Of a stretch of DNA of 64,000 bases, positions 326-29,093 are shown piece by piece. This DNA is from Salinivirgaceae bacterium. Its GTDB lineage: Bacteria > Bacteroidota > Bacteroidia > Bacteroidales > SZUA-534. The stretch spans positions 9-64,008 of the forward strand of contig JAFZKK010000149.1 in the NCBI GenBank assembly GCA_017551905.1. Reading direction: 5' to 3'. The position numbers and the translations under genes were made by a program. Position 1 is the first letter of the stretch. Each line of letters opens with the position of its first letter. Below the pieces are notes generated by a model. It ran no database searches. It was given only the letters and a program-made list of their open reading frames with translations, and had not been told where the DNA came from.

Positions 326-384
326 TGCGGCCTGATTGAAGTGACGTTTCCGACTTGCCCATAAATTAATTTCACTCTCAAAAT

Positions 385-421
385 CCCCGTTTCGTATACA
401 GCAACCCCCGTTTTGTATACA
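385..421 (+). repeat. tandem direct repeat CCCCGTTTYGTATACA x2 in 21-nt register
   Basis: CCCCGTTTCGTATACA at 385-400 and CCCCGTTTTGTATACA at 406-421 are 15/16 identical. Each contains the palindrome GTATAC. They lie just upstream of the -7 box of the TonB-dependent receptor gene. Confidence 0.85.
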
Positions 422-448
422 ATTCAAAATTGGTGATTGGCGGCCACC

Positions 449-456
449 TACTTTTG
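449..456 (+). promoter_or_regulatory. Bacteroidetes-type -7 promoter box (TACTTTTG)
   Basis: Exact match to the TAnnTTTG -7 consensus of Bacteroides sigma-A promoters, 29 nt upstream of the ATG at 485. Confidence 0.45.
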
Positions 457-484
457 GCACCAGAATCAAAAAACAAAATTGAAT

Positions 485-2830
485 ATGAAACGGATTTTAT
501 TTCTTGCAGTTTGCTTAATGCTTCAGAATCAGATTGTTGAAGCGCAGTCGTTCACTCAAAACATTAGAGGCGTGGTTTTCGACGCGGCGTCAGGAACGCC
601 AGTGCCGTTTGCCACTGTTTACGTTGAGGACCAGCCGACACAGGGTGCGGCAGCCGACACCGCAGGTCGGTTTGTGATTAAAAACGTGACCGTCGGCCGC
701 CATACCGTTATCGTTCAGACAATCGGTTACGAACCGCTGATAATGAAAGAGTTGATGGTGTCGTCGGCAAAAGAGACATACATTGAGGCAGGTCTGCACG
801 AGTCGGTGACAGCGCTTGACGAGGTTACGGTTCGTCCGCAAATCAACAAGCAGCAGCCGCTCAACAAGATGGCTTCGACGGGCGCGCGAATGCTCTCGAT
901 TGAAGAGGCAAGCCGCTACGCAGGCGGTTTCGGCGACCCCGCGCGTTTGGCAAGTTCGTTTGCGGGTGTGTCGCAAGACGGTTGCACCAACGGCATTTCA
1001 ATCCACGGCAACGCACCGCATTTGCTCGCGTGGCGCATTGAGGGTATCGAGATTCCGAACCCCAACCACTTTGCCGACATTTCGGTGGCAGGCGGCGGAT
1101 TGGTTTCGTCGTTAAGTGCCTTTGTAGTAGGCAATTCCGACTTCTTTACGGCGGCTTTTCCTGCCGAATATGGCGATGCCGTTTCGGGCGTTTTCGATAT
1201 GAAACTGCGCCAGGGCAACAACGACAAGTATGAACACACCTTCCAGTTGGGCACTTTGGGTATCGATTTTGCGTCGGAAGGCCCTATCGGCAAGGACCGA
1301 AAGGCTTCATACATAGTCAATTACCGATATTCGTCGTTGGGTTTGGCGTCGAAAATGGATTGGGTTGATATGGGTGGCGAAGTGGTTGATTATCAGGACT
1401 TGAACTTCAAGATTAATCTGCCTACAAAATCGGCGGGAACGTTCGCTGTTTGGGGCACGGGGCTTATCGACACCGACGAGAAAATCGTTTCCGACACCAC
1501 CGAATGGGAAACCAGTTTCGACATAAATCAGGGAAAATCGAAACAAAAAATGGGCGCTATCGGCCTGAAACACCATATTTTACTGCCGCGCGGCGGACAA
1601 CTCACCACCACTTTGGCCGCCACCGCCAACACAATGGAAGCCGACCGTAAATCGTACAATTTCAGCACTAACGCCTACGACCTTCCCGCTGTTGTAATGT
1701 CGACAAGTTACACCGACCTGATTGCCGATGTGGCCCACAGCCGCAAGGTTTCGGCGCGCTACACAATGAAAAACGGCGTTCACTACACGCATTTCCTTTA
1801 CGACATTCAGATGCAGCACGGCGACACTATCGGACAGCCGCTCTACACAGTGTTTGAAGCCGATGGCGAGTCGGGGTTGCTGTCGGCCTACACAAGCCAC
1901 CAGTTGAGTTTGAGCAACGAGTTGACACTCACCGCAGGTCTGAATCTTGAGAGCCTGCGCCTGAACGGTGCCGTCAGCCTTGAGCCCCGTGTGGGACTGC
2001 GTTGGCAGCCAACTGCCCGCTCAACTTTCGCTGCAGCCTACGGTCTGCACAGCCGCCGCGAGAAAACCGATGTCTATTTTGTGAAAATCGGCGGCGAATT
2101 GGTCAACAAAGACCTTGATTTCACTAAAGCACACCACTTTATGCTGTCGTACAGCCTGAAACTCACCGACAACTCGTTGCTCAAAATCGAGCCGTTCTAC
2201 CAGCACCTTTATAATGTTCCTGTTGAGGAAGGCACTTCGTTCTCTGTGCTCAACCATATCAATTATTATATCGACAAAGCGTTGGTTAACAAAGGTTTGG
2301 GAAGAAATTACGGTGTCGATATCACGCTTGAGCGATATCTGAACAACGGTTGGTACGGAATGACCACGGCTTCGATTTTCAGTTCGCGCTACCGCGGCGG
2401 CGACGGCAAATGGTACCACTCGCGCTACGATAGAAACTACGTTATCAATGTGTTAGGCGGCAAAGAGTGGATGTTTGGAAGCGAGAAGCAGAACGTTTTT
2501 GCGCTGAACGCGAAAATCACCGTCCAGGGTGGCGACCGCCACGCGCCTGTGGCCGACGATGTTACGCCCTACGAGATTATCCATTCGTCGGAAGGTGCCG
2601 CACGCCTTGACGAGACCCGCGCCTTCACCGAGCAGTACGGCACGGCCATTGCCTACAACTATTCGGCCCGCGTCACCATTAACAAACACCGCGTGTCGCA
2701 CAGTTTCGTTATCGATATGACTCAAAACAAGGGCTACTACGACCACGTTTACAACCTGCGCACCCACAAAATTGAGCCGTACACCGTGAAACTGACTCTG
2801 CCGAATATTGCTTATAAACTTGAGTTCTAA
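485..2830 (+). CDS. TonB-dependent receptor with N-terminal carboxypeptidase-regulatory-like domain
   Basis: The ATG at 485 gives the signal peptide MKRILFLAVCLMLQNQIVEA (the track start at 437 is a TTG). A CarboxypepD_reg-like segment follows (IRGVVFDAASGTPVPFATVYV...GRFVIKNVTVGRHTVIV), then a plug-like region, a long beta-rich body and a terminal aromatic residue (YKLEF). Confidence 0.85.
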   Translation: MKRILFLAVCLMLQNQIVEAQSFTQNIRGVVFDAASGTPVPFATVYVEDQPTQGAAADTAGRFVIKNVTVGRHTVIVQTIGYEPLIMKELMVSSAKETYIEAGLHESVTALDEVTVRPQINKQQPLNKMASTGARMLSIEEASRYAGGFGDPARLASSFAGVSQDGCTNGISIHGNAPHLLAWRIEGIEIPNPNHFADISVAGGGLVSSLSAFVVGNSDFFTAAFPAEYGDAVSGVFDMKLRQGNNDKYEHTFQLGTLGIDFASEGPIGKDRKASYIVNYRYSSLGLASKMDWVDMGGEVVDYQDLNFKINLPTKSAGTFAVWGTGLIDTDEKIVSDTTEWETSFDINQGKSKQKMGAIGLKHHILLPRGGQLTTTLAATANTMEADRKSYNFSTNAYDLPAVVMSTSYTDLIADVAHSRKVSARYTMKNGVHYTHFLYDIQMQHGDTIGQPLYTVFEADGESGLLSAYTSHQLSLSNELTLTAGLNLESLRLNGAVSLEPRVGLRWQPTARSTFAAAYGLHSRREKTDVYFVKIGGELVNKDLDFTKAHHFMLSYSLKLTDNSLLKIEPFYQHLYNVPVEEGTSFSVLNHINYYIDKALVNKGLGRNYGVDITLERYLNNGWYGMTTASIFSSRYRGGDGKWYHSRYDRNYVINVLGGKEWMFGSEKQNVFALNAKITVQGGDRHAPVADDVTPYEIIHSSEGAARLDETRAFTEQYGTAIAYNYSARVTINKHRVSHSFVIDMTQNKGYYDHVYNLRTHKIEPYTVKLTLPNIAYKLEF

Positions 2831-2848
2831 TAAGTTGATGGATGTTTA

Positions 2849-2906
2849 AATTTGCTAACACAGATGTTACTAACAAGTTTGTTACTAACAATGTTGTTAG
2901 CAAATT
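2849..2906 (+). repeat. 12-bp inverted repeat enclosing two TGTTACTAACA palindromic direct repeats
   Basis: AATTTGCTAACA (2849-2860) is the exact reverse complement of TGTTAGCAAATT (2895-2906). The loop carries TGTTACTAACA at 2865-2875 and (T)TGTTACTAACA at 2879-2890. Confidence 0.85.
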
Positions 2907-2916
2907 AAAAAGTAAT

Positions 2917-2924
2917 TATCTTTG
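2917..2924 (+). promoter_or_regulatory. Bacteroidetes-type -7 promoter box (TATCTTTG)
   Basis: Exact TAnnTTTG match 21 nt upstream of the ATG at 2945. Confidence 0.45.
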
Positions 2925-2944
2925 CCGATATAAATGATGTAACT

Positions 2945-4072
2945 ATGGACAATCCGTTTGTATATGGAGTTGCTGCCGACAACGCACATTTTATCGGCAG
3001 AGAAGATGAGGCAAGACGTCTGATGATGAATTTTAGCAATGGCATCAACACCATTCTGATTTCGCAGCGACGATTAGGCAAAACTTCGCTTGTTAACAAT
3101 GTTATTGAGCGAATGGCTGACAATAAAAACGTGAGAATCATTAAGATGGATGCGTTTGCCTGCAAAGATGAAAGCGATTTTTATGTGATGTTCGCCACCG
3201 AAATTATCCGTCAGATAAGCAGCAAGGCCGAATCGCTGATTGAGAACGCCAAACGCTTCCTTTCGAGCCTTGTGCCAAAATTATCGGTGGAGCAGAGCGG
3301 AGACATTTCGTTCTCGCTTGAAACAACTGATAAACAATACAATGCCGATGTCCTATCACTTCCAGAACGCATTGCCGTTGAAAAAGGAATCCGAATTGTG
3401 GTCTGCATCGATGAGTTTCAGCAAATTGGTGAATTTACTGATTCACTGTCGTTTCAGAAGAAACTGCGGTCGGTATGGCAACATCAGCACAACACAAACT
3501 ATTGTCTGTTTGGCAGCAAGCGGCATCTTCTTATGAATATGTTCGGCAAGGCCAGTTACCCGTTTTACAAATTTGGCGACATCATTTTTCTCGAAAAAAT
3601 CCCCGTCGAACGTTGGGTAGAGTACATTCAACGGCAGTTCTCGGTTACAGGAAAATCGATTTCGAGCGAAATCTGCGAGGCGATTTGCAGTTATGTCGAG
3701 GGCAATTCTTCATACGTTCAGCAACTTGCGTGGTTGCTTTGGGCGCGGACGGACACTGCAGCAACCGAATCGTTACTTGAATTGGCAAAGCAGGATTTGT
3801 TGCAGCAAAACCACATCCTTTTCCTGAATTACATAAGCAATCTGTCGAGTTATCAAATACGTGCTGTTCAGGCAATTGCCGAAGGTCACACAACCGACCT
3901 TTCGACCAGCAATGTGATTTTCGACTATCGGTTGAGTTCAACTGCAAATGTAAGCCGAGTGAAAAAAGCCTTGGAAGAAAAGGAGTTTGTGGAGATAACA
4001 GGCAAAAACGTGGAATTGTCCGACCCCATTTTTGGTCGTTGGGTGCTTCGGAATCTGAAAACTTACATTTAG
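2945..4072 (+). CDS. AAA+ ATPase (archaeal-type ATPase / DUF234-like family)
   Basis: Walker A-like RRLGKTSLV, Walker B-like IVVCIDEFQQ, and a winged-helix-like C-terminal tail. This matches the widespread 'ATP-binding protein' family of Bacteroides accessory regions, by recall. Confidence 0.7.
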   Translation: MDNPFVYGVAADNAHFIGREDEARRLMMNFSNGINTILISQRRLGKTSLVNNVIERMADNKNVRIIKMDAFACKDESDFYVMFATEIIRQISSKAESLIENAKRFLSSLVPKLSVEQSGDISFSLETTDKQYNADVLSLPERIAVEKGIRIVVCIDEFQQIGEFTDSLSFQKKLRSVWQHQHNTNYCLFGSKRHLLMNMFGKASYPFYKFGDIIFLEKIPVERWVEYIQRQFSVTGKSISSEICEAICSYVEGNSSYVQQLAWLLWARTDTAATESLLELAKQDLLQQNHILFLNYISNLSSYQIRAVQAIAEGHTTDLSTSNVIFDYRLSSTANVSRVKKALEEKEFVEITGKNVELSDPIFGRWVLRNLKTYI

Positions 4073-4118
4073 ACAAGGATTGAAAACAAGCAAAATCACC
4101 ATTCTTCAAACTTTTCCC

Positions 4119-4126
4119 TAACTTTG
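4119..4126 (+). promoter_or_regulatory. Bacteroidetes-type -7 promoter box (TAACTTTG)
   Basis: Exact TAnnTTTG match. It overlaps the TTG at 4124 used as the start in the ORF track, which argues that the real start is the ATG at 4154. Confidence 0.45.
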
Positions 4127-4153
4127 TCTGAAATCGCACAAATCGCAGTTGTT

Positions 4154-7100
4154 ATGCTATTCCAGAAGAATATTCTCAAAAAATACACCGATGCCGTGCC
4201 GCAGGATGTTGTGGCGCAGGCTTGGCAGCAGTATCAGTCGTACTTCCTGAACCCCGAAATTCAGGCCAATATTCGCCAGAGCAAAGAGGAACAGTTTCAG
4301 GAGGGATTCCTTCGCGAATTGTTTGTCAAGGTGTTGGGCTATACGCTCAATCCGTCGCCAGACTACAATCTGATTACCGAGCAGAAGAACGAAACCAACT
4401 CGCGGAAAGCCGACGGAGCCATTCTTGTCGATGGCAAAGTGGTTGGTATTATCGAACTTAAAGACCACAAAACCACCGACTTATCGAAAATCGAGCAGCA
4501 GGCTTTCGGCTACAAAAGCCAAAACCAGAACGCGGTGTATGTTGTGATTTCGAATTTTGAGAAACTGCGATTCTATATCGACAACGCCGTGGAATGCGTC
4601 GAGTTCGATTTGTTCCATTTAACTGAAAATGAATTCTGTACACTTTGGCTTTGCCTTGCTTACACCAATATTGCCGCCAATCTGCCCAAGCGTATAAAGA
4701 CCGAGAGCGTGAGCAGCGAGGACGCCATTACCAACGCCTTGTATCGCGACTACACAAACTTCAAACGTGTTCTGTATCAGGATATTTGCGCAAACAACGA
4801 CGTGGCCGACGATGACGCGCGTGTTGAGTTGTACAAAAAGACGCAGAAATTGCTCGACCGTATGCTCTTCATTTTCTTTGCCGAAGACAGCGGACTTCTG
4901 CCGCCCAACACAATGATTCGAATCATTGACGATTGGCGCAAACTCGCCGATTTGGACGCCTATGTGCCACTCTACGAGCGTATTAAGAAATATTTCGGCT
5001 ACTTGGATACGGGATACAAAGGCAAAGATTACGAGATTTTCGCCTACAACGGCGGACTTTTCAAGCCCGACGATGTGCTCGACTCGCTCAAAATAACCGA
5101 CTCGGTTCTTGAGCAGCACACCCGCCGACTATCGGAATACGACTACCAGAGCGAGGTCGATGTCAATATTCTTGGCCATATCTTCGAAAACTCGCTGAAC
5201 GAGATTGAAGCCGTTGCCGCGCCGACCGATGCCGCGCCCAGCACCACCAAACGCAAGCGCGACGGCGTTTTCTACACCCCGCAGTACATTACCAAATACA
5301 TTGTCGAGAATACCGTGGGGCGGCTTTGCGCCGACAAGAAAGCCGAGTTGCAGATTGACGAGCAGGAGTATTTTGCCGACCGCCGACGCAACAAAGACAC
5401 CAAAATCAAACTCTTGAAACGGCTCAACGATTACCGCCAGTGGCTCTTGCAGATAACCATTTGCGACCCCGCGTGCGGCTCGGGCGCTTTTCTGAACGCC
5501 GCCCTTCAGTTCCTGATTCAGGAGCACCGCCTGATTGACGAGATGGATGCCAAGATTACCGACTCGCCGATGGTCATTCCCAATGTCGAAAACTCGATTT
5601 TGGAGAACAACCTTTTCGGTGTCGATATTAACGAGGAGAGCGTTGAGATTGCCCGTCTCTCGCTTTGGCTGCGCACCGCCCGTCCGCACCGCAAACTCAA
5701 CTCGCTCAACCAGAACATAAAGTGCGGAAACAGTCTGATTTCGGACCCCGATGTTGCCGCCGACAAAGCCTTCGATTGGCAGCGCGAGTTCCCGCAAGTG
5801 TTCGAGCGCGGTGGTTTCGACGTCGTGATTGGCAACCCGCCGTATGGCGCAACATTTAATGATGCTGAAAAAGCGTTTATTACAAAATCTTATAAATCTT
5901 ACAGATATAAGTATGAAAGTTATATCTATTTCATAGAAAAATCTTTGAATTTGGTTAAAGATGAAGGTTTTGTGGAATTTATTACACCCCAATTATGGTT
6001 GTCTCTTGATGAATCTTACAACATTCGCAATATTGTTTTAAATAATGATTTACAAACAATTAGGTTTTATGGAGAAGATGCTTTTGCTGACGCAGTAGTG
6101 AATACTTGTTCATTTATGATTAGGAAAAAAGCACCGAATAATGAACTTGTAATAATTGATATTGCAGAAAGAAAAAGATTGTTATCAAAATCGGATGTTA
6201 TTGAAAAAGAAACACTTAAAATCAATTATAGATTGGACAATATGCAAATGTCCATTATTAAAAAACTTCAACTTAACACAAGAAAACTATCATATTATGG
6301 TACTGTAATTCAAGGAATAACACCTTACGATAAGCACCGCGGCCAATCAGAAGAAATAATTAAAAACAGAGCGTATCACCATACAGAAAAAATTGATGAT
6401 ACGTGCGGTTATTGGTTAGAAGGTCAAGATGTTTCTCGTTATTCTGTATGTTGGAGCGGCAATTGGTTAAGTTATGGCACGTGGTTGGCTGCCCCCAGAG
6501 AAAAAAAATATTTTGAGGGTGCAAGAATACTCTTTAGGGAAATTCCAGGACAAGGGAAAAGATTGCAAGCCGCATATTATAATGAAGTTGCTTATTACGG
6601 GCATAGCATATCACCATTTAAGTTAAATCAAGAAAACGAATCTTTATTGAAAGCAATATTAGGTTGTGTTAATTCAAAACTTATTAGTTGGTATGGGGCT
6701 TTGTTGCTTCCCAATTTGTCAAAAGACATTTTCCCAAAGGTAAATCCAAAGGATATTTCTGAATTGCCCATTCCAAATGAGTTGGAAAATGACACAAATA
6801 CTATTTCTGCATTAGCAAATTTAGCCGACAAAATGCTGACACTAAACGCAGATTTGCAGCAGAAAGTGAGTCGATTCCTACGCCGCATAACGGAGACCTA
6901 CAATTTGGAAAAGACCACCGCCGCGCTCGAAACATTCTACACGCTCTCTTTCAGCGATTTTGTGAAGGAACTCGGCAAGCAGAAGGTGAAACTCACCCTT
7001 GTGCAAAAAGACGAACTCGAGGATTATTTCAACGCCTACCAATCGGAATGTCAGTCGCTCAAAACCGCAATCGCCACCACCGACCACGAGATTGACCGTA

Positions 7101-7156
7101 TGGTGTACGCCCTTTACGGCCTTACGGATGAGGAGATTGGGGTGGTGGAAAATTAA
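4154..7156 (+). CDS. type IIG (MmeI-like / type IIL) restriction-modification enzyme: PD-ExK nuclease + gamma-class N6-adenine methyltransferase + target-recognition region
   Basis: N-terminal D...ELK nuclease motif (ADGAILVDGKVVGIIELKDHK). AdoMet motif I DPACGSGAFL. Catalytic motif IV NPPYG (VVIGNPPYGATF). Long C-terminal region ending in the Eco57I/MmeI-type tail (IDRMVYALYGLTDEEI). Confidence 0.85.
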   Translation: MLFQKNILKKYTDAVPQDVVAQAWQQYQSYFLNPEIQANIRQSKEEQFQEGFLRELFVKVLGYTLNPSPDYNLITEQKNETNSRKADGAILVDGKVVGIIELKDHKTTDLSKIEQQAFGYKSQNQNAVYVVISNFEKLRFYIDNAVECVEFDLFHLTENEFCTLWLCLAYTNIAANLPKRIKTESVSSEDAITNALYRDYTNFKRVLYQDICANNDVADDDARVELYKKTQKLLDRMLFIFFAEDSGLLPPNTMIRIIDDWRKLADLDAYVPLYERIKKYFGYLDTGYKGKDYEIFAYNGGLFKPDDVLDSLKITDSVLEQHTRRLSEYDYQSEVDVNILGHIFENSLNEIEAVAAPTDAAPSTTKRKRDGVFYTPQYITKYIVENTVGRLCADKKAELQIDEQEYFADRRRNKDTKIKLLKRLNDYRQWLLQITICDPACGSGAFLNAALQFLIQEHRLIDEMDAKITDSPMVIPNVENSILENNLFGVDINEESVEIARLSLWLRTARPHRKLNSLNQNIKCGNSLISDPDVAADKAFDWQREFPQVFERGGFDVVIGNPPYGATFNDAEKAFITKSYKSYRYKYESYIYFIEKSLNLVKDEGFVEFITPQLWLSLDESYNIRNIVLNNDLQTIRFYGEDAFADAVVNTCSFMIRKKAPNNELVIIDIAERKRLLSKSDVIEKETLKINYRLDNMQMSIIKKLQLNTRKLSYYGTVIQGITPYDKHRGQSEEIIKNRAYHHTEKIDDTCGYWLEGQDVSRYSVCWSGNWLSYGTWLAAPREKKYFEGARILFREIPGQGKRLQAAYYNEVAYYGHSISPFKLNQENESLLKAILGCVNSKLISWYGALLLPNLSKDIFPKVNPKDISELPIPNELENDTNTISALANLADKMLTLNADLQQKVSRFLRRITETYNLEKTTAALETFYTLSFSDFVKELGKQKVKLTLVQKDELEDYFNAYQSECQSLKTAIATTDHEIDRMVYALYGLTDEEIGVVEN
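5850..6830 (+). other. AT-rich mosaic segment inside the R-M gene (post-NPPY methyltransferase motifs plus target-recognition region)
   Basis: Composition switches abruptly right after the NPPYG codons from GC-rich (e.g. ggcaacccgccgtatggcgc) to strongly AT-rich (e.g. aaatcttataaatcttacagatataagtatg). It switches back near 6830-6860 (gcagatttgcagcagaaagtgagtcg). Boundaries are judged by eye, to about +/- 30 nt. Confidence 0.7.
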
Positions 7157-7167
7157 ATAAAAACGCT

Positions 7168-7305
7168 ATGGATAACAACAAGTCAATCATACAATTAACG
7201 GAAGCAGTTGAAACCATAAAAACCGCCATTTTGCAAGGTCAGTACGAGGCGTTGAAAGACATTGAGGATATTTCGGTAGTCGGGACTACCGAATTGGCGG
7301 AATAA
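7168..7305 (+). pseudogene. 45-codon relic resembling the N-terminus of a DUF1016/YhcG-family protein
   Basis: ATG at 7168 to TAA at 7303-7305 gives MDNNKSIIQLTEAVETIKTAILQGQYEALKDIEDISVVGTTELAE. The AVETIKTAILQ segment parallels the N-terminal helix of DUF1016 proteins, including the intact neighbour (LCAIVETTKRKTAVAVN). It is too short to be the full protein. Confidence 0.35.
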
Positions 7306-7331
7306 TTGAAAACAAATTAATTAGGAACACG

Positions 7332-8381
7332 ATGGAAGAAATGAGCGAAACCAAATTGTTCTCTGACTTATGCGCCATTGTAGAGACAACAAAGCGCAAA
7401 ACCGCCGTAGCGGTCAACCGAGGAATAGTGTTTATGTATTGGCACATAGGCCACCGCATAAATACCGATGTGCTTGGTAACAAGCGCGCCGAATATGGTA
7501 AACGAATTGTGGCGGAATTGGCGACACAATTAAACGAGCATTTTCAAACCAAAGAATTCTCAAGTCGCAATTTGCACCGAATGATGCAGTTCGCCGCTGA
7601 TTTTCAAGATGTTGAAATTGTGTCGGCGCTGGCGACACAATTGACGTGGAGCCATATAATCGAGATATTGCCACTGAAAAGCACCGTTCAAAAAGAGTTT
7701 TATCTTACAATGGCTTCGAAAGAAATGTGGGGGACGAAAACCCTGCGGGCTAAAATCGACGGTATGCTTTTTGAGCGCACGGCTATCAGCGGCAAGCCCG
7801 AAGAATTTATTAAAAAGGAACTTACAGAACTTCGCGAAACCAACAATCTAACCCCCGATTTGGTTTTTAAAAATCCTTATTTCCTTGATTTTACAGGATT
7901 GAAAGGCTTTTATTCGGAACGTGATTTGGAAGACCGTTTGGTCACAAAAATCCAACAATTCTTAATGGAACTTGGCAACGGCTTTTGCTTTGTCGAACGA
8001 CAAAAACGTATAATAATCGATGGTGAGGATTATTATATCGATTTGCTGTTTTTCCACCGAAAATTGCGCCGATTGATTGCTGTCGAGTTAAAGTTAGGCC
8101 GTTTCAAAGCCGCCTACAAAGGGCAGATGGAGTTGTATTTGCGCTGGCTCGACAAATACGAGCGTCAAGAAAACGAGGAAAGTCCGTTAGGATTGCTTTT
8201 ATGCTCTGACGGAGGCGACGAGCAGATTGAATTGTTGCAATTAGACCAATCAGGCATTCGTGTTGCTCAATATCTAACCGAATTCCCTTCGAAAGAATTG
8301 TTGCAACAGCACTTGCGTCACCAGATTGAAAGTGACAATGATAATTCTGCAGAAACAGATTTGATTGGAGATAATAAATAG
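7332..8381 (+). CDS. DUF1016 / YhcG-family PD-(D/E)xK nuclease
   Basis: N-terminal DUF1016 region (AVNRGIVFMYWHIGHRI...GKRIVAELATQL) and a C-terminal nuclease core (YYIDLLFFHRKLRRLIAVELKLGRF, a D...ELK motif). Confidence 0.85.
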   Translation: MEEMSETKLFSDLCAIVETTKRKTAVAVNRGIVFMYWHIGHRINTDVLGNKRAEYGKRIVAELATQLNEHFQTKEFSSRNLHRMMQFAADFQDVEIVSALATQLTWSHIIEILPLKSTVQKEFYLTMASKEMWGTKTLRAKIDGMLFERTAISGKPEEFIKKELTELRETNNLTPDLVFKNPYFLDFTGLKGFYSERDLEDRLVTKIQQFLMELGNGFCFVERQKRIIIDGEDYYIDLLFFHRKLRRLIAVELKLGRFKAAYKGQMELYLRWLDKYERQENEESPLGLLLCSDGGDEQIELLQLDQSGIRVAQYLTEFPSKELLQQHLRHQIESDNDNSAETDLIGDNK

Positions 8382-8403
8382 TCGTTACCTAACACCCAAA
8401 GAA

Positions 8404-9423
8404 ATGCAATCCACACCAAAATCCCTAGCCACCGACCTACTTCTCGACGAGCGCTACCACCTGTTGAGGTACGTTGTTCTGTGCGTTGCGCTACTGATTT
8501 TCAGCATTTCAGAGATAACGTTCAACTACGTACAACTGATTGGCGATGCCGCAGGACAATTGAGTCTTATATTGCTGATTGCCAATTGTTTCCTTTGGAA
8601 GGTGGCGTATTTGGTAGTGCTTGTGAAGTTGCTTGTGCCGCGATTTTTCAACCGTGGGCGCTACGGATTTTTCTTCGTGAGCCTACTTGTGGTGACGGTT
8701 GCGCTTGTGGGACTGCAGTATTTGGTCGAGGGCGGAATTTGCAGCCGCTACGGCATTGCCACGCGCTACACGGCGCCGTTGCACTATATTGCGCTCGACG
8801 CGATGGTGCTCAATATCCAGTGGCTAATCGTCATAATTGGCGTAATATTAGGACTTTGCGTCAAGCGGATGGCGCAGGAACGGCAACTCAACCAACAGCA
8901 GCAGGCCGAGCGTGCGCAGATGGAAACCGCCCTGATGAAACAGCAGATTTCGCCCGCAATGCTCTGCACCACGCTTCACACCTGTGGCCAGCGCGCCTTG
9001 ACCGACGCCGAAGCCACGTCGGGTGCGCTGTTGCGGTTCAGCCGAGTGCTGCGCTACCAACTCTACGACAGCCGCCGTGAACTCTCGCTACTGAAAAGCG
9101 AACTCGATTTCGTGCACGAATATCTCAATGTTTTGCAGTTTGATGGCGTTTGTAAATCGTTCACAATCAATACCGATGGCTCGATAATGGGCATTATGGT
9201 GCCGCCGCTCGTCTTCACGTCGCTGATGCAGTACAGCGAGCCAGTTGGCAATATCGATTGTCATTTTACGGTTGGGGCTGACAATCTGCAATTTACAATT
9301 GTCGATGGCCGTACCGAGGCTGATTTTTCGGCAGCACGCAAGCGGCTCTCATTGCTCTATGCCGACCGTTACTCGCTGATTGTCAATAACAACGGCATTT
9401 GTCTCACAATTCCAATCAGTTAG
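8404..9423 (+). CDS. LytS/YehU-type membrane sensor kinase paralog, catalytically degenerate
   Basis: Multi-TM N-terminus, then a region collinear with the next gene's His_kinase and HATPase domains. QISPAMLCTTL replaces QINPHFLFN, MQYSEPVG replaces VENAVKHN, and there is no GIGL box. The ATG at 8404 is preferred over the TTG at 8365. Confidence 0.7.
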   Translation: MQSTPKSLATDLLLDERYHLLRYVVLCVALLIFSISEITFNYVQLIGDAAGQLSLILLIANCFLWKVAYLVVLVKLLVPRFFNRGRYGFFFVSLLVVTVALVGLQYLVEGGICSRYGIATRYTAPLHYIALDAMVLNIQWLIVIIGVILGLCVKRMAQERQLNQQQQAERAQMETALMKQQISPAMLCTTLHTCGQRALTDAEATSGALLRFSRVLRYQLYDSRRELSLLKSELDFVHEYLNVLQFDGVCKSFTINTDGSIMGIMVPPLVFTSLMQYSEPVGNIDCHFTVGADNLQFTIVDGRTEADFSAARKRLSLLYADRYSLIVNNNGICLTIPIS

Positions 9424-9425
9424 TT

Positions 9426-10526
9426 ATGGCACAGTTCAACTCGTTTTTCAATAAGTTGCTTTTCGATGGCAAATATCGGATAATCAGACATTTGCTGTTC
9501 CAATTCCCGATATTTATGCTGTCGCTCTGCATATTCGGCACCAACGACAGCCGCCTTTTCGATTTTCAGTTGTCGTTGGTTCCCGTATGGTTGGGATTCT
9601 ACGCTTATCTGATAATGTGTTGGTACGTAAATATTTATGTGCTGACGCCGCGATATTTGCTCAATGGTCGGATTCTGAAATTCACACTTCTTGCGCTGTT
9701 GCTCATTGCGCCAATCGCGATTTTGAGAATTATGGTGGTGGTGTTGTCCGACGCGAGTCAATTTCCGTTGAGTATCAGTATTATAAACTTTATAGGAAAC
9801 ACCCTGACGTTGGTTTTCCTGATGGCTGCGCCAACAAGTTTGGCCCTGTTCCGACAGATTGCGCTGCAGAATCTTCGCAACAGCGAACTGCAGGCCGCCA
9901 CAGCGCATACCGAGTTGCAAATGCTTAAGCAACAGATAAATCCGCACTTCCTGTTCAATATGATAAACAATGTGAACGTGCTTGTACGCCGCGAGCCCGA
10001 GCAGGCTTCAGCGTTGCTTTTCAGGCTCGAGGACCTTATCCGCTATCAGTTGGCCGACAGCAATCGCGAGCAGGTTAACTTGCTGTCCGACATTCAGTTC
10101 CTTCGCGATTTTCTTGACCTTGAGAAGGTTCGCCGTTCAAGTTTTCGTTTCAGTATCGACACCAGCGGCATTGCCCCCGACATTGAGGTGCCGCCGTTGC
10201 TTTTCATTCCGTTTGTCGAGAATGCCGTCAAGCACAACAGCGACGGCGAAAACGAATCGTGGGTGAATATAAGTTTCAGTCTGTCAGATGGTTTGCTGAC
10301 GTTTGTCTGCCAGAATTCCAAACCGCCCGTTGCGCCCGTACCGTCGAAAGCAAGCGGCATTGGCCTGAAAAATATCAGCCGCCGCCTTGAACTACTCTAC
10401 GGCAACCGCCACACGCTTTCAATTACCGACGAAAACAGTATATTTACGGTGAAACTTTCGATAGATTTGAGAATTTGGATGAAGGATTTATTGATTGCGA
10501 ATAGCGTGACTCGCTGCCGTCTGTAG
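9426..10526 (+). CDS. sensor histidine kinase, LytS/YehU family (His_kinase + HATPase_c)
   Basis: Multi-TM N-terminus. Phospho-acceptor box QINPHFLFNMINN, N-box FVENAVKHN, G2 box ASGIGLKNISRRLELLYG. The ATG at 9426 lies 3 nt after the upstream TAG. Confidence 0.85.
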   Translation: MAQFNSFFNKLLFDGKYRIIRHLLFQFPIFMLSLCIFGTNDSRLFDFQLSLVPVWLGFYAYLIMCWYVNIYVLTPRYLLNGRILKFTLLALLLIAPIAILRIMVVVLSDASQFPLSISIINFIGNTLTLVFLMAAPTSLALFRQIALQNLRNSELQAATAHTELQMLKQQINPHFLFNMINNVNVLVRREPEQASALLFRLEDLIRYQLADSNREQVNLLSDIQFLRDFLDLEKVRRSSFRFSIDTSGIAPDIEVPPLLFIPFVENAVKHNSDGENESWVNISFSLSDGLLTFVCQNSKPPVAPVPSKASGIGLKNISRRLELLYGNRHTLSITDENSIFTVKLSIDLRIWMKDLLIANSVTRCRL

Positions 10527-10572
10527 TCTGATGTCAGTTGTCCGTAGTCAAGAATTAAACTTTTGAATCAGT

Positions 10573-11289
10573 ATGAACTGCATAATAGTTGACGATGAGC
10601 CACTTGCGCGCGAGGCGATTGAGATTCTTCTTGAGTCGGAACCCGAACTGACGCTTGTGGGAACGTTTGGCAGCGCATTGGCAGCGCAGCGTTTCCTGTC
10701 GCAGACGCAAGTCGATTTGGCCTTTCTCGACATTCAGATGCCAGGGCTCACAGGCATTGAGTTCGCGCACACCATTTCGCCGCAGACGCTTGTGATTTTC
10801 ACCACGGCCTATTCCGAATACGCCATTGACAGTTACGAGGTCGATGCAGTCGATTTTCTTGTGAAACCCGTTGAGAAAGAACGCTTTCACAAGGCTGTTG
10901 ATAAGGCGGTATCTTACTTCAAATTGCTCACGCAGGGCGACAAGCAGAACATTGAGCCCGGTGCCGATGACTACTTTTTCGTCAAGTCGGACCGCAAGTT
11001 CTGCAAAGTTTGCTTCGCCGACATTCTTTTTGTCGAAGGCCTGAAGGATTATGTGGTTCTTCAACTTGAAAATCAGAAGATTATCACCCGAATGAACCTA
11101 AAAAACATATCGGCCCTTCTGCCGCAACCGATGTTTATGCGCGTCAGCAAATCGTACATTGTCAACACCGCCCGAATCGAAGCCTTTGACAACAACGACA
11201 TATTCATTGGCCCGCACGAAATTGCTATAGGTGAGAGCTTTAGAGACGAGTTTTTCGATTTGTTTGTGAAGAATCAGAGGCGGACATGA
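10573..11289 (+). CDS. LytR/AlgR-family response regulator (REC + LytTR DNA-binding domain)
   Basis: The receiver (MNCIIVDDEPLAREAI...DLAFLDIQMPGLTGIEF) is followed by a LytTR domain (ILFVEGLKDYVVLQL...MRVSKSYIVN). Confidence 0.9.
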   Translation: MNCIIVDDEPLAREAIEILLESEPELTLVGTFGSALAAQRFLSQTQVDLAFLDIQMPGLTGIEFAHTISPQTLVIFTTAYSEYAIDSYEVDAVDFLVKPVEKERFHKAVDKAVSYFKLLTQGDKQNIEPGADDYFFVKSDRKFCKVCFADILFVEGLKDYVVLQLENQKIITRMNLKNISALLPQPMFMRVSKSYIVNTARIEAFDNNDIFIGPHEIAIGESFRDEFFDLFVKNQRRT

Positions 11290-13976: not shown

Positions 13977-16900
13977 ATGCGTAAAACGATATTAACCAAT
14001 GTCTTAATCGCCGTATTTCTGTTGACGGCACTTGGCGTTTCCGCCCAAAAGACACAAATCTATCTTGATGAGGATTACGACTACCGAATAGGCGTCGATT
14101 TGTTTAACAAGCAGCACTATTCGCAGGCGCAGCAGTTCTTTGAGCGTGTTGTGGCGCACTACGGCAACGAGTTTTCCGACATCAAAGCCGATGCGGAGTA
14201 TTATGCGGCTTTGTGCGCGCTCGAGCTTTTCAACAGCGACGCCGAATATCGCATTGGCAAGTTCATAAACGAGTATCCCGAGAGTCCGCGCACACGGGTG
14301 GCTTATTTCGAAATGGGCCGCTATCAGTATCGGGCCAACCATTATAAAGAGGCGCTCGACTATTTCGACCGTGTGTGGAAGCAGAATCTGAACAAGGAGC
14401 AGCTTGCCGAGCTCTATTTCAAGAAAGGCTACAGCTATTTCAAACTCAAACAGTACGACCGTGCGTCGAAGATGTTCTACGAGCTTATCGACGGGAAAAG
14501 CAAATACGCCAATCCGGCAATCTATTTCTACGCTCACATAGCCTATACCAACAAGAATTACGAGACGGCGCTCAACAATCTACAAAAGATTGAGTCCGAC
14601 CCGACATTTGCGCCGGTTGTGCCATACTACAGGCTGCAGATTTACTTTATCCAAGGCAAGGACGACAAGGTTATTGAGCTTGGAAAATCACTTTTTGAGC
14701 AGACCGACGCCAAGCGCCAGGCCGAGATGTCGCGCATAGTGGGAGAGGCGCTCTACAACAAGGAGATGTACACCGAGGCCGTTCCCTATCTGGAGATTTA
14801 CAAGAGCAAGGCCGACAACTACACCCGCGAAGACATCTATCAGCTCGGCTACGCCTATTATAAGACAGGCGATTTCCAACAGGCGGCAACCACAATGTCA
14901 AATGTTACCAATATAAAAGATGAACTGACGCAGAACGCCTATTTCCACATCGCTTACTCAAATATGCAGCTTCAGCAGAAGGAGCAGGCGCGCATGGCTT
15001 TTGCCGCTGCATCGAAGTACGATTTCAACGAGCGGATAAAAGAACAGTCGTTGCTCAATTATGCTAAACTGTCTTACGAACTATCGTATTCGCCTTTCAA
15101 TGAGACGATTAAAGCTTTCAATCAATATCTGGAACAATATCCCAACTCGGTTCATCGCGATGAGGCTTACGAGTATCTAGTGAAGGCTTATCTGTCGTCG
15201 AAGAACTATCAGGCGGCGCTTGAGTCGATTGCCAAAATCAAAAACAAGACGCCCGAGATGCAGTCGGCATGGCAGCGCGTGGCTTATTTCCGCGGCTTGG
15301 AGCTCTACAACAACCTGAAATTTGAGGAGTCGGTTGTGGCGTTCGACAAAGTTATTGAGCTGAAGGCTTACGACAAGGAAATCAGGGCTTTAGCGCAGTA
15401 TTGGAAAGGTGAGGCGCTATACCGGCTCGAGAAATACACCGATGCCGCCGCCGCCTACAACCAACTTCTGACAACGCCCGGAGCCTACACAATGCCTGAG
15501 TACAAGACTTGCTATTATAACATCGGCTACTGCCATTTCAAAAATAAAGACTATACAAAGGCTGCCGACTGGTATCGCAAATACACCGAGAAAACCAGCG
15601 ACGCCGACACCGCCAAGCTGGCTGACAGCTACATCCGCATTGGCGACTGTTTCTTTGTTACGTCGAAGTTCAGCGACGCATCGCTGTTCTACGGAATGGC
15701 AGCCGACCTTAACGCGTTCGATGTCGAATACGCATTGTTCCAGAAAGGTTTTGCAATGGGACTTGGCAAAGATTTGACCGGCAAGATAAAGACAATGAGC
15801 GAGTTGCTTCGCCGTTACCCGAAATCGAACTATGCCGCCGACGCGCTTTTCGAGCGTGCGCGCGCCTACACCATTATCGATTCAACACAATTGGCAATCA
15901 ACGATTTCCACACGCTTGCCAAGAATTACCCAAACAGCTCGTATGTTGTTAAATCGCTGTTACAGACAGGTTTGCTCTATTATGCCGATGGTCAGAACTA
16001 TCTGGCTATCGACAATTTCAAGAGTGTGATTGAGAAATATCCGGGCACATCGGAGGCCGACGAGGCGCTTTTCGCTTTGAAGAATGTCTATGTCGATATG
16101 AACAAGGTTGACGACTATTTCGACTATGCCAAGAGCCGCGGAAACCTGACCGATGTCGATATGTCGGAGCGCGATTCGCTTACGTATGCTTCAGCCGAAA
16201 AGGTCTATATGACAGGCAATTGGCGTGAGGCCGGAGGCTTGTTCGACAGCTATCTCGACAAGTTCCCCGAAGGCAAATTCTCGCTCAATGCCACTTACTA
16301 TCGCGGCGACTGCAACTTGAAGATGCGCAACAACGACAAGGCTCGTGAGGATTTCGAGGCTATAGCCGCCCGTCCTAAGAATATGTTCACCGAGGCGTCG
16401 TTGCTGAGTGCAGCATCGCTTGCCGAGAGTGCAAAGGATTACAAACAGGCCGTCGAGCTTTATAAGAAGCTGGAAGACAATGCCGAAGTGAAATCGAACT
16501 TGATGATTGCGCGCGAAGGTCAGATGCAAAATGCTTTTGCCGACAGCAATTTCAATGCGGCAATCGAGGCGGCGCGTAAAGTACTGATAACCGACAAGAT
16601 AACTGAGGAGCAGATTCGCCGTGCACGTTATGTGATGGCCGTAAGCTACTATCAGACGCACCAAGCCGACCCGGCAATAACTCAGTTCCGCATTCTGGCG
16701 CTCGACATGACGAGCAAGGAGGGAGCAGAGTCGCAGTATATGGTTGCCCGAATGCTGTTTGAGCAGGGCGAGTTGCAAAAGTCGGAGGAGGCTGTCAATG
16801 CGCTCATCTCGTCGGGAACATCGCATTTCTACTGGATTGCCAAGGCGTTCTTCTTGCTGTCTGATATCTGCATGGAGCGTGGCGACCGTTTCCAGGCCAA

Positions 16901-17441
16901 GGCCAACTTGCAGAGTGTTATTGAGAACTACGGCGACACCTCCGACGGCATTGTTGACGAAGGCAACGCCAAGTTGAAACTCATTACCGATGAGGAGAAC
17001 GAGAAGTTTGTTGAGGATAATTCGACGCAGGAGGTAGTGATTAAGTTCAACGAGAACAATTCGGAAATGGAGTCGGAGGATGATGACGAAGAAGAAGCGC
17101 AACCGGAACCGGCACCCGAACCAGCCGTTGAGGAGGCTCCCAAAACCGAATCGATGCAAGTGGTAGAACCGCAAAATACTGAAACAAAACAGGTTGAACC
17201 GACTGAAAACGATACTCTGCAAGAGACAGAAACAACCGAAGACGCTGGCACGCAGACCGAAACTGAAAGTGCTGAAAGTCAGTCGGCCAACGAAACCGAA
17301 CAGTCGACAGCCGAAAGCGAACCTGAAGCCGCAGAGCCGCAAGCTGAGGAACAGCAGGAACAGAATACAGAACAGACTGATACTGAGCCTGCTAACGACA
17401 ATCAAGAACAAGACGAGGCTGAAAATCAAGAACAAGAATAA
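13977..17441 (+). CDS. large tetratricopeptide-repeat protein with acidic low-complexity C-terminal tail
   Basis: Signal peptide without a lipobox cysteine. Repeated TPR-like A/Y/F-spaced helices run throughout. The last ~130 residues are E/Q/T/D/P-rich (EEAQPEPAPEPAVEE...NQEQDEAENQEQE). Confidence 0.8.
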   Translation: MRKTILTNVLIAVFLLTALGVSAQKTQIYLDEDYDYRIGVDLFNKQHYSQAQQFFERVVAHYGNEFSDIKADAEYYAALCALELFNSDAEYRIGKFINEYPESPRTRVAYFEMGRYQYRANHYKEALDYFDRVWKQNLNKEQLAELYFKKGYSYFKLKQYDRASKMFYELIDGKSKYANPAIYFYAHIAYTNKNYETALNNLQKIESDPTFAPVVPYYRLQIYFIQGKDDKVIELGKSLFEQTDAKRQAEMSRIVGEALYNKEMYTEAVPYLEIYKSKADNYTREDIYQLGYAYYKTGDFQQAATTMSNVTNIKDELTQNAYFHIAYSNMQLQQKEQARMAFAAASKYDFNERIKEQSLLNYAKLSYELSYSPFNETIKAFNQYLEQYPNSVHRDEAYEYLVKAYLSSKNYQAALESIAKIKNKTPEMQSAWQRVAYFRGLELYNNLKFEESVVAFDKVIELKAYDKEIRALAQYWKGEALYRLEKYTDAAAAYNQLLTTPGAYTMPEYKTCYYNIGYCHFKNKDYTKAADWYRKYTEKTSDADTAKLADSYIRIGDCFFVTSKFSDASLFYGMAADLNAFDVEYALFQKGFAMGLGKDLTGKIKTMSELLRRYPKSNYAADALFERARAYTIIDSTQLAINDFHTLAKNYPNSSYVVKSLLQTGLLYYADGQNYLAIDNFKSVIEKYPGTSEADEALFALKNVYVDMNKVDDYFDYAKSRGNLTDVDMSERDSLTYASAEKVYMTGNWREAGGLFDSYLDKFPEGKFSLNATYYRGDCNLKMRNNDKAREDFEAIAARPKNMFTEASLLSAASLAESAKDYKQAVELYKKLEDNAEVKSNLMIAREGQMQNAFADSNFNAAIEAARKVLITDKITEEQIRRARYVMAVSYYQTHQADPAITQFRILALDMTSKEGAESQYMVARMLFEQGELQKSEEAVNALISSGTSHFYWIAKAFFLLSDICMERGDRFQAKANLQSVIENYGDTSDGIVDEGNAKLKLITDEENEKFVEDNSTQEVVIKFNENNSEMESEDDDEEEAQPEPAPEPAVEEAPKTESMQVVEPQNTETKQVEPTENDTLQETETTEDAGTQTETESAESQSANETEQSTAESEPEAAEPQAEEQQEQNTEQTDTEPANDNQEQDEAENQEQE

Positions 17442-17454
17442 AGGAGATATACCG

Positions 17455-19149
17455 ATGAAAAGTAATAGAATAAGTATATTGACTATCATATTGTTAGGCG
17501 CAACAACAGCATTCGCGCAGAACAACAACCTGAACCAAGAGGTGAAAGTGATAAAGGCATACGAGCCGGTAATCAACGATGCGTATAAAATCAGCTCGCT
17601 GCCCAAAATTGTTGACACTCTCAACGTTACGCCAACTTTCGACTACGATGACGGCGTTACTCCGGAGATGTACAAAACCAAATACAAACCAAAGCAGATG
17701 AAACCAGCAAAGCTTGTCGCCGAGCCGCTCCCGAAGCTCTACAACGTGTATGTGAAAGGCGGTTTCGGAATGTACACAACGCCGCTACTTAACATCTACA
17801 CCGGCAGCCAGAGGTCGGAAAAATGGCTGTGGAACGCCAACATGAACTACACTTCGAGCAGCGCCAAGGTTAAGAACGAAGACGACAAGCGGGTTTATGC
17901 AGGATTGTCGAAGTTCGACATTAACGGCAGCGTGCACCGCTATTTCAAAAACGATATGGCGGCTTCAATATCAGCTGGTTACGGCAATCGTGGCAATTAT
18001 TATTACGGATATGCCACCGAACTCAATCTGCCCGATTCGCTTATTCCTTTGAAACGGAAAGATATTGAGAAACAAAGTGTTAACTACTATAACATAGGAG
18101 CGACGGTCTATTCGACAAACCTTGATTCGGCTGAAATCGACTATAAGGTGTCGCTTGGCTACAACGGCCTGAAAACCAAAGACAGCAAGAGCGAAAACAA
18201 TATCCATTTCGACGGATATATTAGCTATCTACTTGATAAAGAGTTCTTAGGCGTTAAATGTGTGATAGACAATTACAAAACGCAAGGTCTTGCTAATGAT
18301 GTCAACTCGGCGGTTGTCAATTTCAATCCGTGGGTAGGCGCCTACGGCCGCAAATGGCGCGTCAAGGTGGGTGTCAACACTTTCTACGACCAGCGCAATC
18401 AGAAGTATATGTTCTTCCCCGACATCAGCATGCAGTATAACATTATCGACTATTTCCTACTGCCGTATGTCGAGCTGAACGGCAACTATAAAGTGCACGA
18501 TTACAAGGATATGTACTTCGAAAATCAGTTTGTGAAATCCGATTTGCGGATAAACCCGACCAAGACGCGAATCAATCTCGCTTTGGGTTTCCGCGGCAAC
18601 ATTAGCTCGCGTATCGCATTCAATATCAAGGCCGAATATGCTAAAATTGACAATCAGTATTTCTTCGTGAACGACACATCGACTTTGTTGCACGAGAAAT
18701 TCTTTGTTGTGTACGACGACATTATGCGTACTCACATCTTGGGCGAAATATCGTACAAGACGAGCGAGAAATTTAAGATTGGCCTGAAGGGACACTATTA
18801 TATTTATGATATGTCGACAGAGCTGGAGGCATGGCACTTGCCAACTTACAACATTAGCCTCGATGCTAGCTACAACCTGTCGAACAAGATAATAGCTACG
18901 GCCAATGTCTATGCCGTAAGCCGCCGTCAGGCTTGCCTCTATCAGGTGGACGGGCCGGGTAAGGTGCTACCTGTGGCCAAAGAGCTCGACGGTGTCATCG
19001 ACATCAATCTGGGCGTGGAGTACCGCATCACCAAACGGTTCTCCGGCTTCCTCGATTTGAACAACTTGACCGGCAGCCGCTATTACCAGTGGAACCAGTA
19101 TGCCAACCAGCGCTTCAATTTCATGCTTGGGTTGACTTACGCATTTTAA
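17455..19149 (+). CDS. outer-membrane beta-barrel protein (putative porin family)
   Basis: The ATG at 17455 gives the signal peptide MKSNRISILTIILLGATTAFAQ (the track ORF from 17194 overlaps the upstream tail). Alternating beta-strand pattern with a C-terminal LGLTYAF. Confidence 0.6.
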   Translation: MKSNRISILTIILLGATTAFAQNNNLNQEVKVIKAYEPVINDAYKISSLPKIVDTLNVTPTFDYDDGVTPEMYKTKYKPKQMKPAKLVAEPLPKLYNVYVKGGFGMYTTPLLNIYTGSQRSEKWLWNANMNYTSSSAKVKNEDDKRVYAGLSKFDINGSVHRYFKNDMAASISAGYGNRGNYYYGYATELNLPDSLIPLKRKDIEKQSVNYYNIGATVYSTNLDSAEIDYKVSLGYNGLKTKDSKSENNIHFDGYISYLLDKEFLGVKCVIDNYKTQGLANDVNSAVVNFNPWVGAYGRKWRVKVGVNTFYDQRNQKYMFFPDISMQYNIIDYFLLPYVELNGNYKVHDYKDMYFENQFVKSDLRINPTKTRINLALGFRGNISSRIAFNIKAEYAKIDNQYFFVNDTSTLLHEKFFVVYDDIMRTHILGEISYKTSEKFKIGLKGHYYIYDMSTELEAWHLPTYNISLDASYNLSNKIIATANVYAVSRRQACLYQVDGPGKVLPVAKELDGVIDINLGVEYRITKRFSGFLDLNNLTGSRYYQWNQYANQRFNFMLGLTYAF

Positions 19150-19383
19150 ATTTCGAAAAAGACTACTTTAAACATAAACTTTATGATGCTACCTAAAATC
19201 TTCAAATTCCGAAAGATAGAATCGAAAATTTCGGAAACTGAAAACCGAACCAGTAGGCAACAACACCTTGCGGAACTGGGAATTTTTATGTCGGAAGATG
19301 AATTTAAATTGAAAATCAAACAGTTGAAAATGGCAAATGTCAGCATCTGAAATTTGCCTGACTGAATTGTAAAAAGATTAAAT

Positions 19384-20322: not shown

Positions 20323-20330
20323 CTTCGGTT

Positions 20331-23033: not shown

Positions 23034-23066
23034 CTTTACCCTTTATTCAACTTCTAAAAGAAAAAT

Positions 23067-23074
23067 TACATTTG
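23067..23074 (+). promoter_or_regulatory. Bacteroidetes-type -7 promoter box (TACATTTG)
   Basis: Exact TAnnTTTG match 20 nt upstream of the ATG at 23094. Confidence 0.45.
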
Positions 23075-23093
23075 CGGCCGCAAAACAGACACA

Positions 23094-24074: not shown

Positions 24075-24076
24075 CC

Positions 24077-24283
24077 ATGACCGCAAAATTCTCTTACGAA
24101 AAGACCGTTGCCGAAATTGAGGCGATTATCGATGATATCGAAAACAACCGCCTTGATGTTGACCAGCTAACCGATGCTGTTGCCCGTGTTGGCGAATTGC
24201 TTGCCAAATGCAAAAAGAAACTCACCGATGCCCGTACCGTCGTCGATGAACTTGAAGCCAAGATGAACGGAGAAGAGGAGTGA
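24077..24283 (+). CDS. xseB: exodeoxyribonuclease VII small subunit
   Basis: A 68-aa helical protein. FSYEKTVAEIEAIIDDIENNRLDVDQL is typical of XseB. Confidence 0.85.
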   Translation: MTAKFSYEKTVAEIEAIIDDIENNRLDVDQLTDAVARVGELLAKCKKKLTDARTVVDELEAKMNGEEE

Positions 24284-24301
24284 GGCGTAAATAGCGCAAT
24301 C

Positions 24302-26875: not shown

Positions 26876-26935
26876 ACTCAGTTTTTATCTCGACTAATTT
26901 AGCAAAATCCGTTTTGCAAAACCTTATTCCGATTT

Positions 26936-28945: not shown

Positions 28946-29038
28946 ACCAAAACAGTTTGTTTTTGTAAAAGTATGAAAATTGTTGGCTGTAACTTTAAAA
29001 ACGCCGTTTTTCTTGCTGATAAGCCGCAGAAATCACAG

Positions 29039-29070: not shown

Positions 29071-29088
29071 CAGTGAGTTCCGTGGTAA
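29059..29088. repeat. 30-nt intergenic element, copy A (TTTCCGTGTTTTCAGTGAGTTCCGTGGTAA)
   Basis: 28/30 identical to 49662-49691. It lies between the receptor stop (29094) and the dsbD start (28945). Confidence 0.9.
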
Positions 29089-29093
29089 TTGTT

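Follow-up and report, generated by a model that had tools for sequence, protein, structure and literature searches.

A mosaic gene for a predicted Type IIG restriction-modification enzyme in an uncultured Bacteroidales bacterium and its probable pool of interchangeable cassettes

Replacement and movement of recognition domains have been described in Helicobacter pylori for Type III mod genes and for the S subunits of Type I and Type IIG systems, with the junctions located in DNA encoding conserved methylase motifs (Furuta and Kobayashi 2012, PMC3467074; commentary PMC3575425; Furuta et al. 2011, PMC3077401). Here, we report on a gene for a predicted Type IIG restriction-modification (R-M) enzyme in a Salinivirgaceae bacterium. 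The DNA that was analysed, and that we refer to as the window, is a stretch of 64,000 nucleotides (GenBank assembly GCA_017551905.1, contig JAFZKK010000149.1, positions 9 to 64,008), and the R-M gene is located at 4154..7156 on its forward strand, as are the other features of the window described here. Based on the comparisons below, we suggest that the segment 5847-6824 of this gene is very probably one allele from a large pool of interchangeable cassettes, which are swapped by homologous recombination in the conserved arms of the gene.

Unrelated cassettes in near-identical frames

The gene lies in an uninterrupted frame at 4124-7156, with an in-frame TTG at 4124 and an ATG at 4154, and codes for 1000 residues from the ATG (database protein P0002). 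Because base composition alone is insufficient to decide whether a gene is a mosaic, relatives were compared instead. A search of 61 related genomes gave syntenic genes in two species of the same genus (G009 and G014). In a three-way DNA alignment, the window and these two genomes are 93-100% identical over 2624-~5860, 11-53% identical at 5864-6840 and again 93-100% identical from 6840. Two metagenome contigs, L017 and L019, have the same pattern, and across the syntenic genes of all four the DNA identity is 93-100% on both sides and 18-61% in the middle. A DNA comparison of four alleles places the junctions at 5846/5847 and 6824/6825: these alleles can be aligned base for base through ...AACCCGCCGTATG (5846) and then again from GACAAAATGCTGACA (6825-6827), while their middles are unrelated, with length differences of -33 to +126 bp. 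The original prediction, made from the letters of the window, had the composition switch right after NPPYG and return before the C-terminal helical tail, at 5850-6830, and was only a few bases off. It also described a mosaic gene with an exchangeable module in frame and both junctions preserved, and this description holds in the allele comparisons and in the comparison with the locus L016 described below.

The junctions divide the gene into three parts. The conserved, host-like frame (4154..5846) encodes the nuclease residues D87/E101/K103, a helical spacer and the first methylase half, with motif I (DPACGSG) at 5465-5485 and motif IV (NPPY) at 5834-5845, 5834 also being the start of the NPPYG codons; it has 93-100% nucleotide identity to G009, G014, L017 and L019. 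The exchangeable AT-rich cassette (5847..6824, 326 codons) encodes the predicted second methylase half at ~5847-6220 together with a TaqI_C recognition domain at ~6416-6772. The conserved C-terminal helical tail (6825..7156), the putative 3' recombination arm, is 93-100% identical in nucleotides among alleles.

The same arrangement recurs with many different middles. A search with the N-terminal 560 residues gave more than 8000 members of the family, including 11 full-length proteins in the frame clade of the window, a frame clade being defined by at least 93% identity with single linkage; nine of these proteins are 98-99% identical to the window's over these residues, and total lengths in the clade are 975-1046 residues. 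By clustering, there are 13 cassette types across three frame clades, 9 of them in the window's clade, and addition of P0134 and of a second gene copy on contig C142 of the same genome brings this clade to ~11 types. Compared to the middles of alleles with 98-99% identical frames, the window's cassette is 35-50% identical in nucleotides and ~20% in amino acids. Among the 53 protein pairs with frames at least 97% identical, the cassettes have less than 35% identity in 48 pairs and at least 90% in none, and frame and cassette identity are nearly uncorrelated (Spearman 0.11).

The reverse situation, a near-identical cassette in a diverged frame, is found in L016 (protein P0027), which is from a different sample and lies in a different neighbourhood, where MatE is found upstream and a gene for an IS200-like Y1 transposase downstream. 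The L016 frame is ~85% identical to that of the window in protein. In DNA, identity is 64-90% over 4154-5660, 94% over 5660-5812 and ~90% in the tail. Across the 1067 bp of 5813-6879, by contrast, the two differ by one substitution (6521) and a 2-bp deletion at the equivalent of 6453-6454, which breaks the frame of this sister gene (L016 4001-7028). The ends of the shared tract are ~35 bp and ~55 bp outside of the cassette, within the conserved arms. Such a near-identical tract in a diverged frame shows that the window's cassette has moved very recently between two diverged frames. Likewise, the cassettes of P0126 and P0142 are 99% identical and their frames 84%.

Exchange may also occur on other scales. 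In P0129/P0130, P0136/P0145 and P0139/P0140, blocks of 60-120 residues are swapped inside one cassette type while the remainder is 90-100% identical; for instance, when the cassettes of P0136 and P0145 are compared in blocks of 20 residues, identity is 75-100% throughout, apart from one 60-residue stretch at 20-35%. This suggests a second, finer level of module exchange within the cassette. Moreover, P0132, P0138 and P0143 have alternative C-terminal tails within one frame clade and P0132 also has alternative first 40 residues, and by these alignments the frame itself appears to be mosaic, too.

Base composition of the cassettes

In 40-codon windows along the gene, the GC content at third codon positions (GC3) is 0.50-0.78 up to codon 560, 0.15-0.33 at about codons 580-880 and 0.62-0.72 from codon 900, and for whole segments it is 0.671 in the frame, 0.237 in the cassette and 0.648 in the tail. 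The change from GC-rich to AT-rich and back to GC-rich DNA within one 1000-codon open reading frame (ORF), as originally predicted, is therefore real (GC3 0.67/0.24/0.65). Among 2487 stretches of 320 codons from long ORFs of this genome, in which the median GC3 is 0.61, 22% have a GC3 as high as that of the frame and just 0.08% have a GC3 as low as that of the cassette. Thus, the frame is host-like and the cassette is compositionally extreme.

The dip is not peculiar to this gene. A drop in GC3 after NPPY, from ~0.5-0.75 to 0.16-0.44, is present in G009, G014, the C142 copy and the cross-family proteins P0003, P0005 and P0008. Within the family, cassette GC3 is below frame GC3 in 14 of the 15 members (host flank GC 0.28-0.47), with ranges of 0.12-0.38 for cassettes and 0.18-0.70 for frames, and cassette GC3 tracks frame GC3 with a slope of ~0.3, these relatives not being independent samples. 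The nearest cross-family relatives of the window's cassette have cassettes that are 72-75% identical and frames that are 68-75% identical. At four-fold sites, the match between the window's cassette and these relatives is 0.31-0.39, with 0.32-0.33 expected from composition, and the GC content of these sites is 0.17-0.27 in both cassette partners versus 0.57-0.74 in the frames. In other words, the four-fold sites are saturated and yet AT-rich in both partners and, therefore, the contrast has outlived complete synonymous turnover.

On these comparisons, AT-richness is a standing property of all cassettes of the family that can neither date a swap nor name a donor. The original prediction had read a recent swap from the composition, a reading that it took to fail if orthologs had the same internal dip; they do have it. 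A word of caution applies to genes of this kind: a GC dip inside them is characteristic of the family and should not be taken to indicate a recent low-GC donor. As a side observation, a gene for another N6-adenine methylase in the same genome (G000 C76:51418-52383 and ~52282 onward) has, just downstream of its methylase core, a stretch that ranks among those with the lowest GC3.

It is conceivable, although we lean against it, that the AT-richness reflects an equilibrium under active maintenance rather than a foreign origin of the cassettes, because it survives four-fold turnover, because the slope is only ~0.3 and because the hosts range from 28% to 47% GC. If true, this would point to a local evolutionary regime, in which cassettes without a homologous partner may escape GC-biased repair or conversion while the recombining arms would not; alternatively, there might be selection for AT-rich DNA in the module. 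The same rule might then account for low GC in other balanced hypervariable gene segments. Our search of the literature on the GC content of Type IIG recognition domains gave nothing on point.

Cassette replacement and rival explanations

In the model that we suggest, each cassette would consist of the second half of the methylase fold and a TaqI_C-type recognition domain, and would most likely be exchanged through homologous recombination in a pair of conserved arms, with the DNA up to the NPPY codons as the 5' arm and the ~330 bp encoding the helical tail as the 3' arm. Such a replacement would keep the nuclease, the spacer and the cofactor-binding half of the methylase, and would presumably change which sequence the enzyme methylates and cuts. 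Because the 5' junction falls within the catalytic fold, after motif IV, the second methylase half is exchanged along with the recognition domain. Between frame lineages, conservation of the DNA is highest in the arms (94-96% versus 64-90% elsewhere), and scans of the genes of the surrounding islet with Pfam and PADLOC gave no recombinase gene. Conserved arms, tract ends inside these arms and an islet without a recombinase gene together fit homologous recombination at conserved flanks. Phage-driven diversifying selection may be the cause of the exchange.

The alignments themselves show the junctions, the diversity of alleles and a very recent transfer of the window's cassette. Several points weigh against the model. 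We infer homologous recombination from the shape of the identity tracts, and a change of specificity upon cassette exchange is, for any allele, an expectation derived from sequence. The genome is a draft of 161 contigs in which one part of the second gene copy is on C87 and another on C142 and, therefore, the 1.7-kb 5' arm is a repeat; the linkage of the cassette to the upstream DNA in this contig rests on the assembly plus the parallel independent assemblies. Finally, there is a 15-nucleotide inverted repeat (14/15 complementary) in the two arms, at 5801-5815 and 6917-6931, which is probably a chance occurrence and which varies at synonymous sites in other alleles.

The low-GC donor lineage of the original prediction, from which the cassette would recently have been imported and of which its composition would be a fading trace, is in our opinion improbable. 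It would explain that the GC3 of the cassette (0.24) is far under the genome median, family members do occur in low-GC Bacteroidales genomes (locus GC 0.28-0.36), and repeated import from an AT-rich reservoir is compatible with the data. However, the dip is found in nearly every family member (14/15) as well as in distant relatives, and it persists through saturation of the four-fold sites, with the low GC of these sites (0.17-0.27) in both partners. Moreover, in a search of 5.8 billion proteins the sole match to the cassette above 77% identity was one of 100%, located in a sister gene from this family with flanks of GC content 0.49; this search gave no cassette above 77% identity outside of the family's sister gene and no low-GC carrier of a close copy. 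If there had been no exchange at all, the gene would have been inherited vertically and its AT-rich middle would simply evolve fast; the family-wide dip could be cited for this, as could the fact that divergence from the nearest cross-family relatives is about the same in the frame as in the cassette. This explanation is scarcely credible, because divergence in place cannot account for cassettes of ~20% identity and unequal length flanked by arms of 97-100% identity, nor for a 99.9% identical cassette in a frame that is only 64-90% identical; the alignment with G009 and G014 and the comparison with L016 already refute it.

The two remaining explanations both start from the presence of two gene copies in this draft genome, the second of them split over C87 and C142. 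With repeated DNA of this kind, the arms of one copy could have been joined during assembly to the cassette of the other copy or of another strain. Such an artefact is very unlikely, given that exact sharing with the L016-type gene outside of the cassette extends over only ~34 and ~55 nucleotides, which is short for a double mis-join, and that the same architecture with other cassettes is present in the independent assemblies of G009, G014, L017/L018 (two runs) and L019. Thus, the phenomenon is not dependent on this contig. Alternatively, a programmed site-specific switch, i.e. a shufflon or phase variation, might exchange the cassette with that of the second copy in the same cell, as could be suspected from two copies in the assembly with 96-97% identical frames and different cassettes and from the inverted repeat in the two arms. 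We regard a switch as even less likely than a mis-assembly: the islet genes tested include no recombinase, the copies are in different neighbourhoods and not head-to-head, and the inverted repeat varies at synonymous sites, with ~0.07 such pairs expected by chance in 1.8 kb by our own estimate. The repeat, which is the only notable pair, was rejected as a recombination site since it is variable among alleles and a recombinase gene is not nearby. Phase variation was rejected as well: long homopolymers and repeat tracts are absent from the cassette, which has just an A8 run, and the 2-bp deletion in L016 is outside any homopolymer tract. Replacement of cassettes by homologous recombination in conserved arms, therefore, remains the explanation that we prefer.

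The enzyme, its locus and related systems

The R-M protein matches 8 Pfam families at E <= 0.01, among them Eco57I (142.7 bits, cut-off 25.3), N6_Mtase, TaqI_C (57 bits, residues 765-883) and MmeI_Mtase (54.8 bits), and the PADLOC profile REase_MTase_IIG PDLC03609 with 818 bits (E = 2.9e-246). MmeI_Mtase passes its cut-off and yet scores far under Eco57I; MmeI_hel is at 27.6 bits versus a cut-off of 27, MmeI_N is under its cut-off (18.7 versus 27), HSDR_N is also under the Pfam cut-off (23.2 bits), and MmeI_TRD and MmeI_C are absent from the 8 families. Membership in the MmeI family (Type IIL) was rejected on these grounds. In an alignment of 26 sequences, the N-terminal PD-(D/E)xK nuclease motif ADGAI...IELKD has invariant D87, E101 and K103, and DPACGSG (motif I) and NPPY (motif IV) are invariant, too. 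Thus, the hallmarks of Type IIG enzymes are found together: matches to curated profiles, a PD-ExK nuclease in the same chain as the gamma-class N6-adenine methylase motifs I and IV, and then a recognition domain.

The AlphaFold model of the protein is of moderate quality (predicted local distance difference test 77, predicted template modelling score 0.45) and was used for domain order and secondary structure only. In its prediction, residues 88-152 form a beta-rich nuclease core, the helical spacer extends to ~431, and NPPY (561-564) is at the end of the fourth strand of a Rossmann-type methylase; these parts would be followed by strands and helices to ~680, a mixed domain to ~880 and long tail helices at 881-916 and 949-987. 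By the Pfam ranges and the model, the exchanged unit exceeds the recognition domain since it includes the half of the methylase fold after NPPY. The original prediction that the module carries the specificity region was, therefore, correct in that it holds the TaqI_C recognition domain, and too narrow in that the second methylase half belongs to it as well.

Sequence matches in the PDB are to PglX, M.TaqI and, weakly, MmeI (5HR4, residues 423-576 only, E = 2e-5). The nearest solved folds are BrxX/PglX, CamA, BpuSI, MmeI and DrdV, all at 11-18% identity, a range in which the fold search cannot single out the nearest kin among BpuSI, MmeI, DrdV and PglX. For NCBIfam, there is a partial match to BREX_1_MTaseX (149.4 bits versus a cut-off of 500). 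Identity as the PglX of a bacteriophage exclusion (BREX) system was rejected because this score is under the cut-off and because neither of the immediate neighbours, an AAA ATPase gene and one for a DUF1016 nuclease, matches a BREX model. Taken together, the profiles and the model characterize the protein as a predicted single-chain Type IIG enzyme of the Eco57I/TaqI_C kind that is "MmeI-like", as it had been called, in layout only: the best models are Eco57I, TaqI_C and the PADLOC Type IIG profile.

The gene is part of a variable defence islet of 5.6 kb (2831..8429) between a receptor gene and LytS-type kinase genes, which contains an AAA ATPase gene, the Type IIG R-M gene, a relic ORF and a gene for a DUF1016/YhcG nuclease. 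The AAA-type ATPase gene upstream (2945..4072) has weak Pfam matches only (ATPase_2, AAA_14, KAP_NTPase) and no PADLOC match, and by synteny it adjoins the R-M gene also in G009, G014, L017 and L019. Just behind the R-M gene is a second variable slot (7188..8386) with the relic ORF of 45 codons and the DUF1016/YhcG gene (PADLOC PDC-S02) at 7332-8381. Identity to G009 stops at 7187 and resumes at 8387; this slot has a KAP NTPase gene in L017 (7133-8554) and other DNA in G009. The islet is present in G014, G009, L017 and L019. In the genome G002, the flanks are kept (363-2830 at 89%; 8430-10475 at 78%) with only 958 bp between them (C26:60255-61211), and the two-gene pair (72 and 150 aa) in place of the islet is one that we read as VapBC-like.

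The ~11 kb around the islet (370-11280) are 94-98% identical to G014, where they are syntenic on the same contig, and to G009, whereas the remaining window (e.g. 14000-30000) is only 66-84% identical to these genomes; this difference indicates that the whole locus with its flanks has been transferred recently between species. The second copy of the R-M gene in this genome (G000), at C87:8245-8343 and C142:3231-5048 (minus strand), has arms that are 96-97% identical to those of the window, a different cassette (P0139/P0140 type, 64-74% in amino acids) and different neighbours, and its shared 5' part seems to have been collapsed into contig C4.

At the other end of the window, a low-GC block (56982-63792) contains genes for an AAA_15/AAA_21 ATPase with a DUF3226/OLD-like TOPRIM protein, a C-5 cytosine methylase and an 849-aa GHKL ATPase as well as two ORFs that gave no family match, and is another defence-type island. 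The original prediction likened the composition of the cassette to that of this region (56.8-64 kb); the likeness holds in so far as both are low-GC defence DNA and does not go beyond that.

Among single-chain enzymes of known structure, BpuSI (3S1S), MmeI (5HR4) and DrdV (7LO5) share with the window enzyme the order of an N-terminal PD-ExK nuclease, a helical spacer, a gamma-class N6-adenine methylase and a recognition domain, and all three are significant fold matches. However, they are only 11-13% identical to it, the sequence search finds only MmeI among them and this over 150 residues (E = 2e-5), and the window enzyme has a recognition domain of TaqI_C type, with no match to MmeI_TRD or MmeI_C. 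PglX/BrxX of BREX systems (8C45, 9EWZ, 8ZEK) is the best match to the methylase region by sequence and fold; unlike PglX, the window protein has a nuclease domain of its own and its immediate neighbours match no BREX model.

With respect to the exchange itself, the locus resembles the cases of Furuta and Kobayashi in three ways. Unrelated recognition domains occur between conserved flanks at one locus, and the histories of the domain and of the remainder of the gene are incongruent; the same domain is found in a diverged gene at another locus (the window versus L016); and the 5' junction directly follows the codons of a conserved methylase motif, NPPY. The window gene differs from these cases in that it encodes a predicted single-chain Type IIG enzyme of an uncultured Bacteroidales, in that half of the catalytic fold, the part past motif IV, moves along as well, and in that the 3' junction is in DNA for a conserved tail helix and not for a methylase motif. 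With ~11 unrelated modules in one nearly invariant frame and base-precise junctions, it represents a natural experiment on how single-chain restriction enzymes gain new targets; the junctions mark where nature tolerates chimeras, which is useful for engineering specificity. The system is what would be expected of defence genes under diversifying evolution in Bacteroidales of the gut or digester type, and its cassette exchange is a clear case of a known process, of the kind described by Furuta and Kobayashi, rather than a new one.

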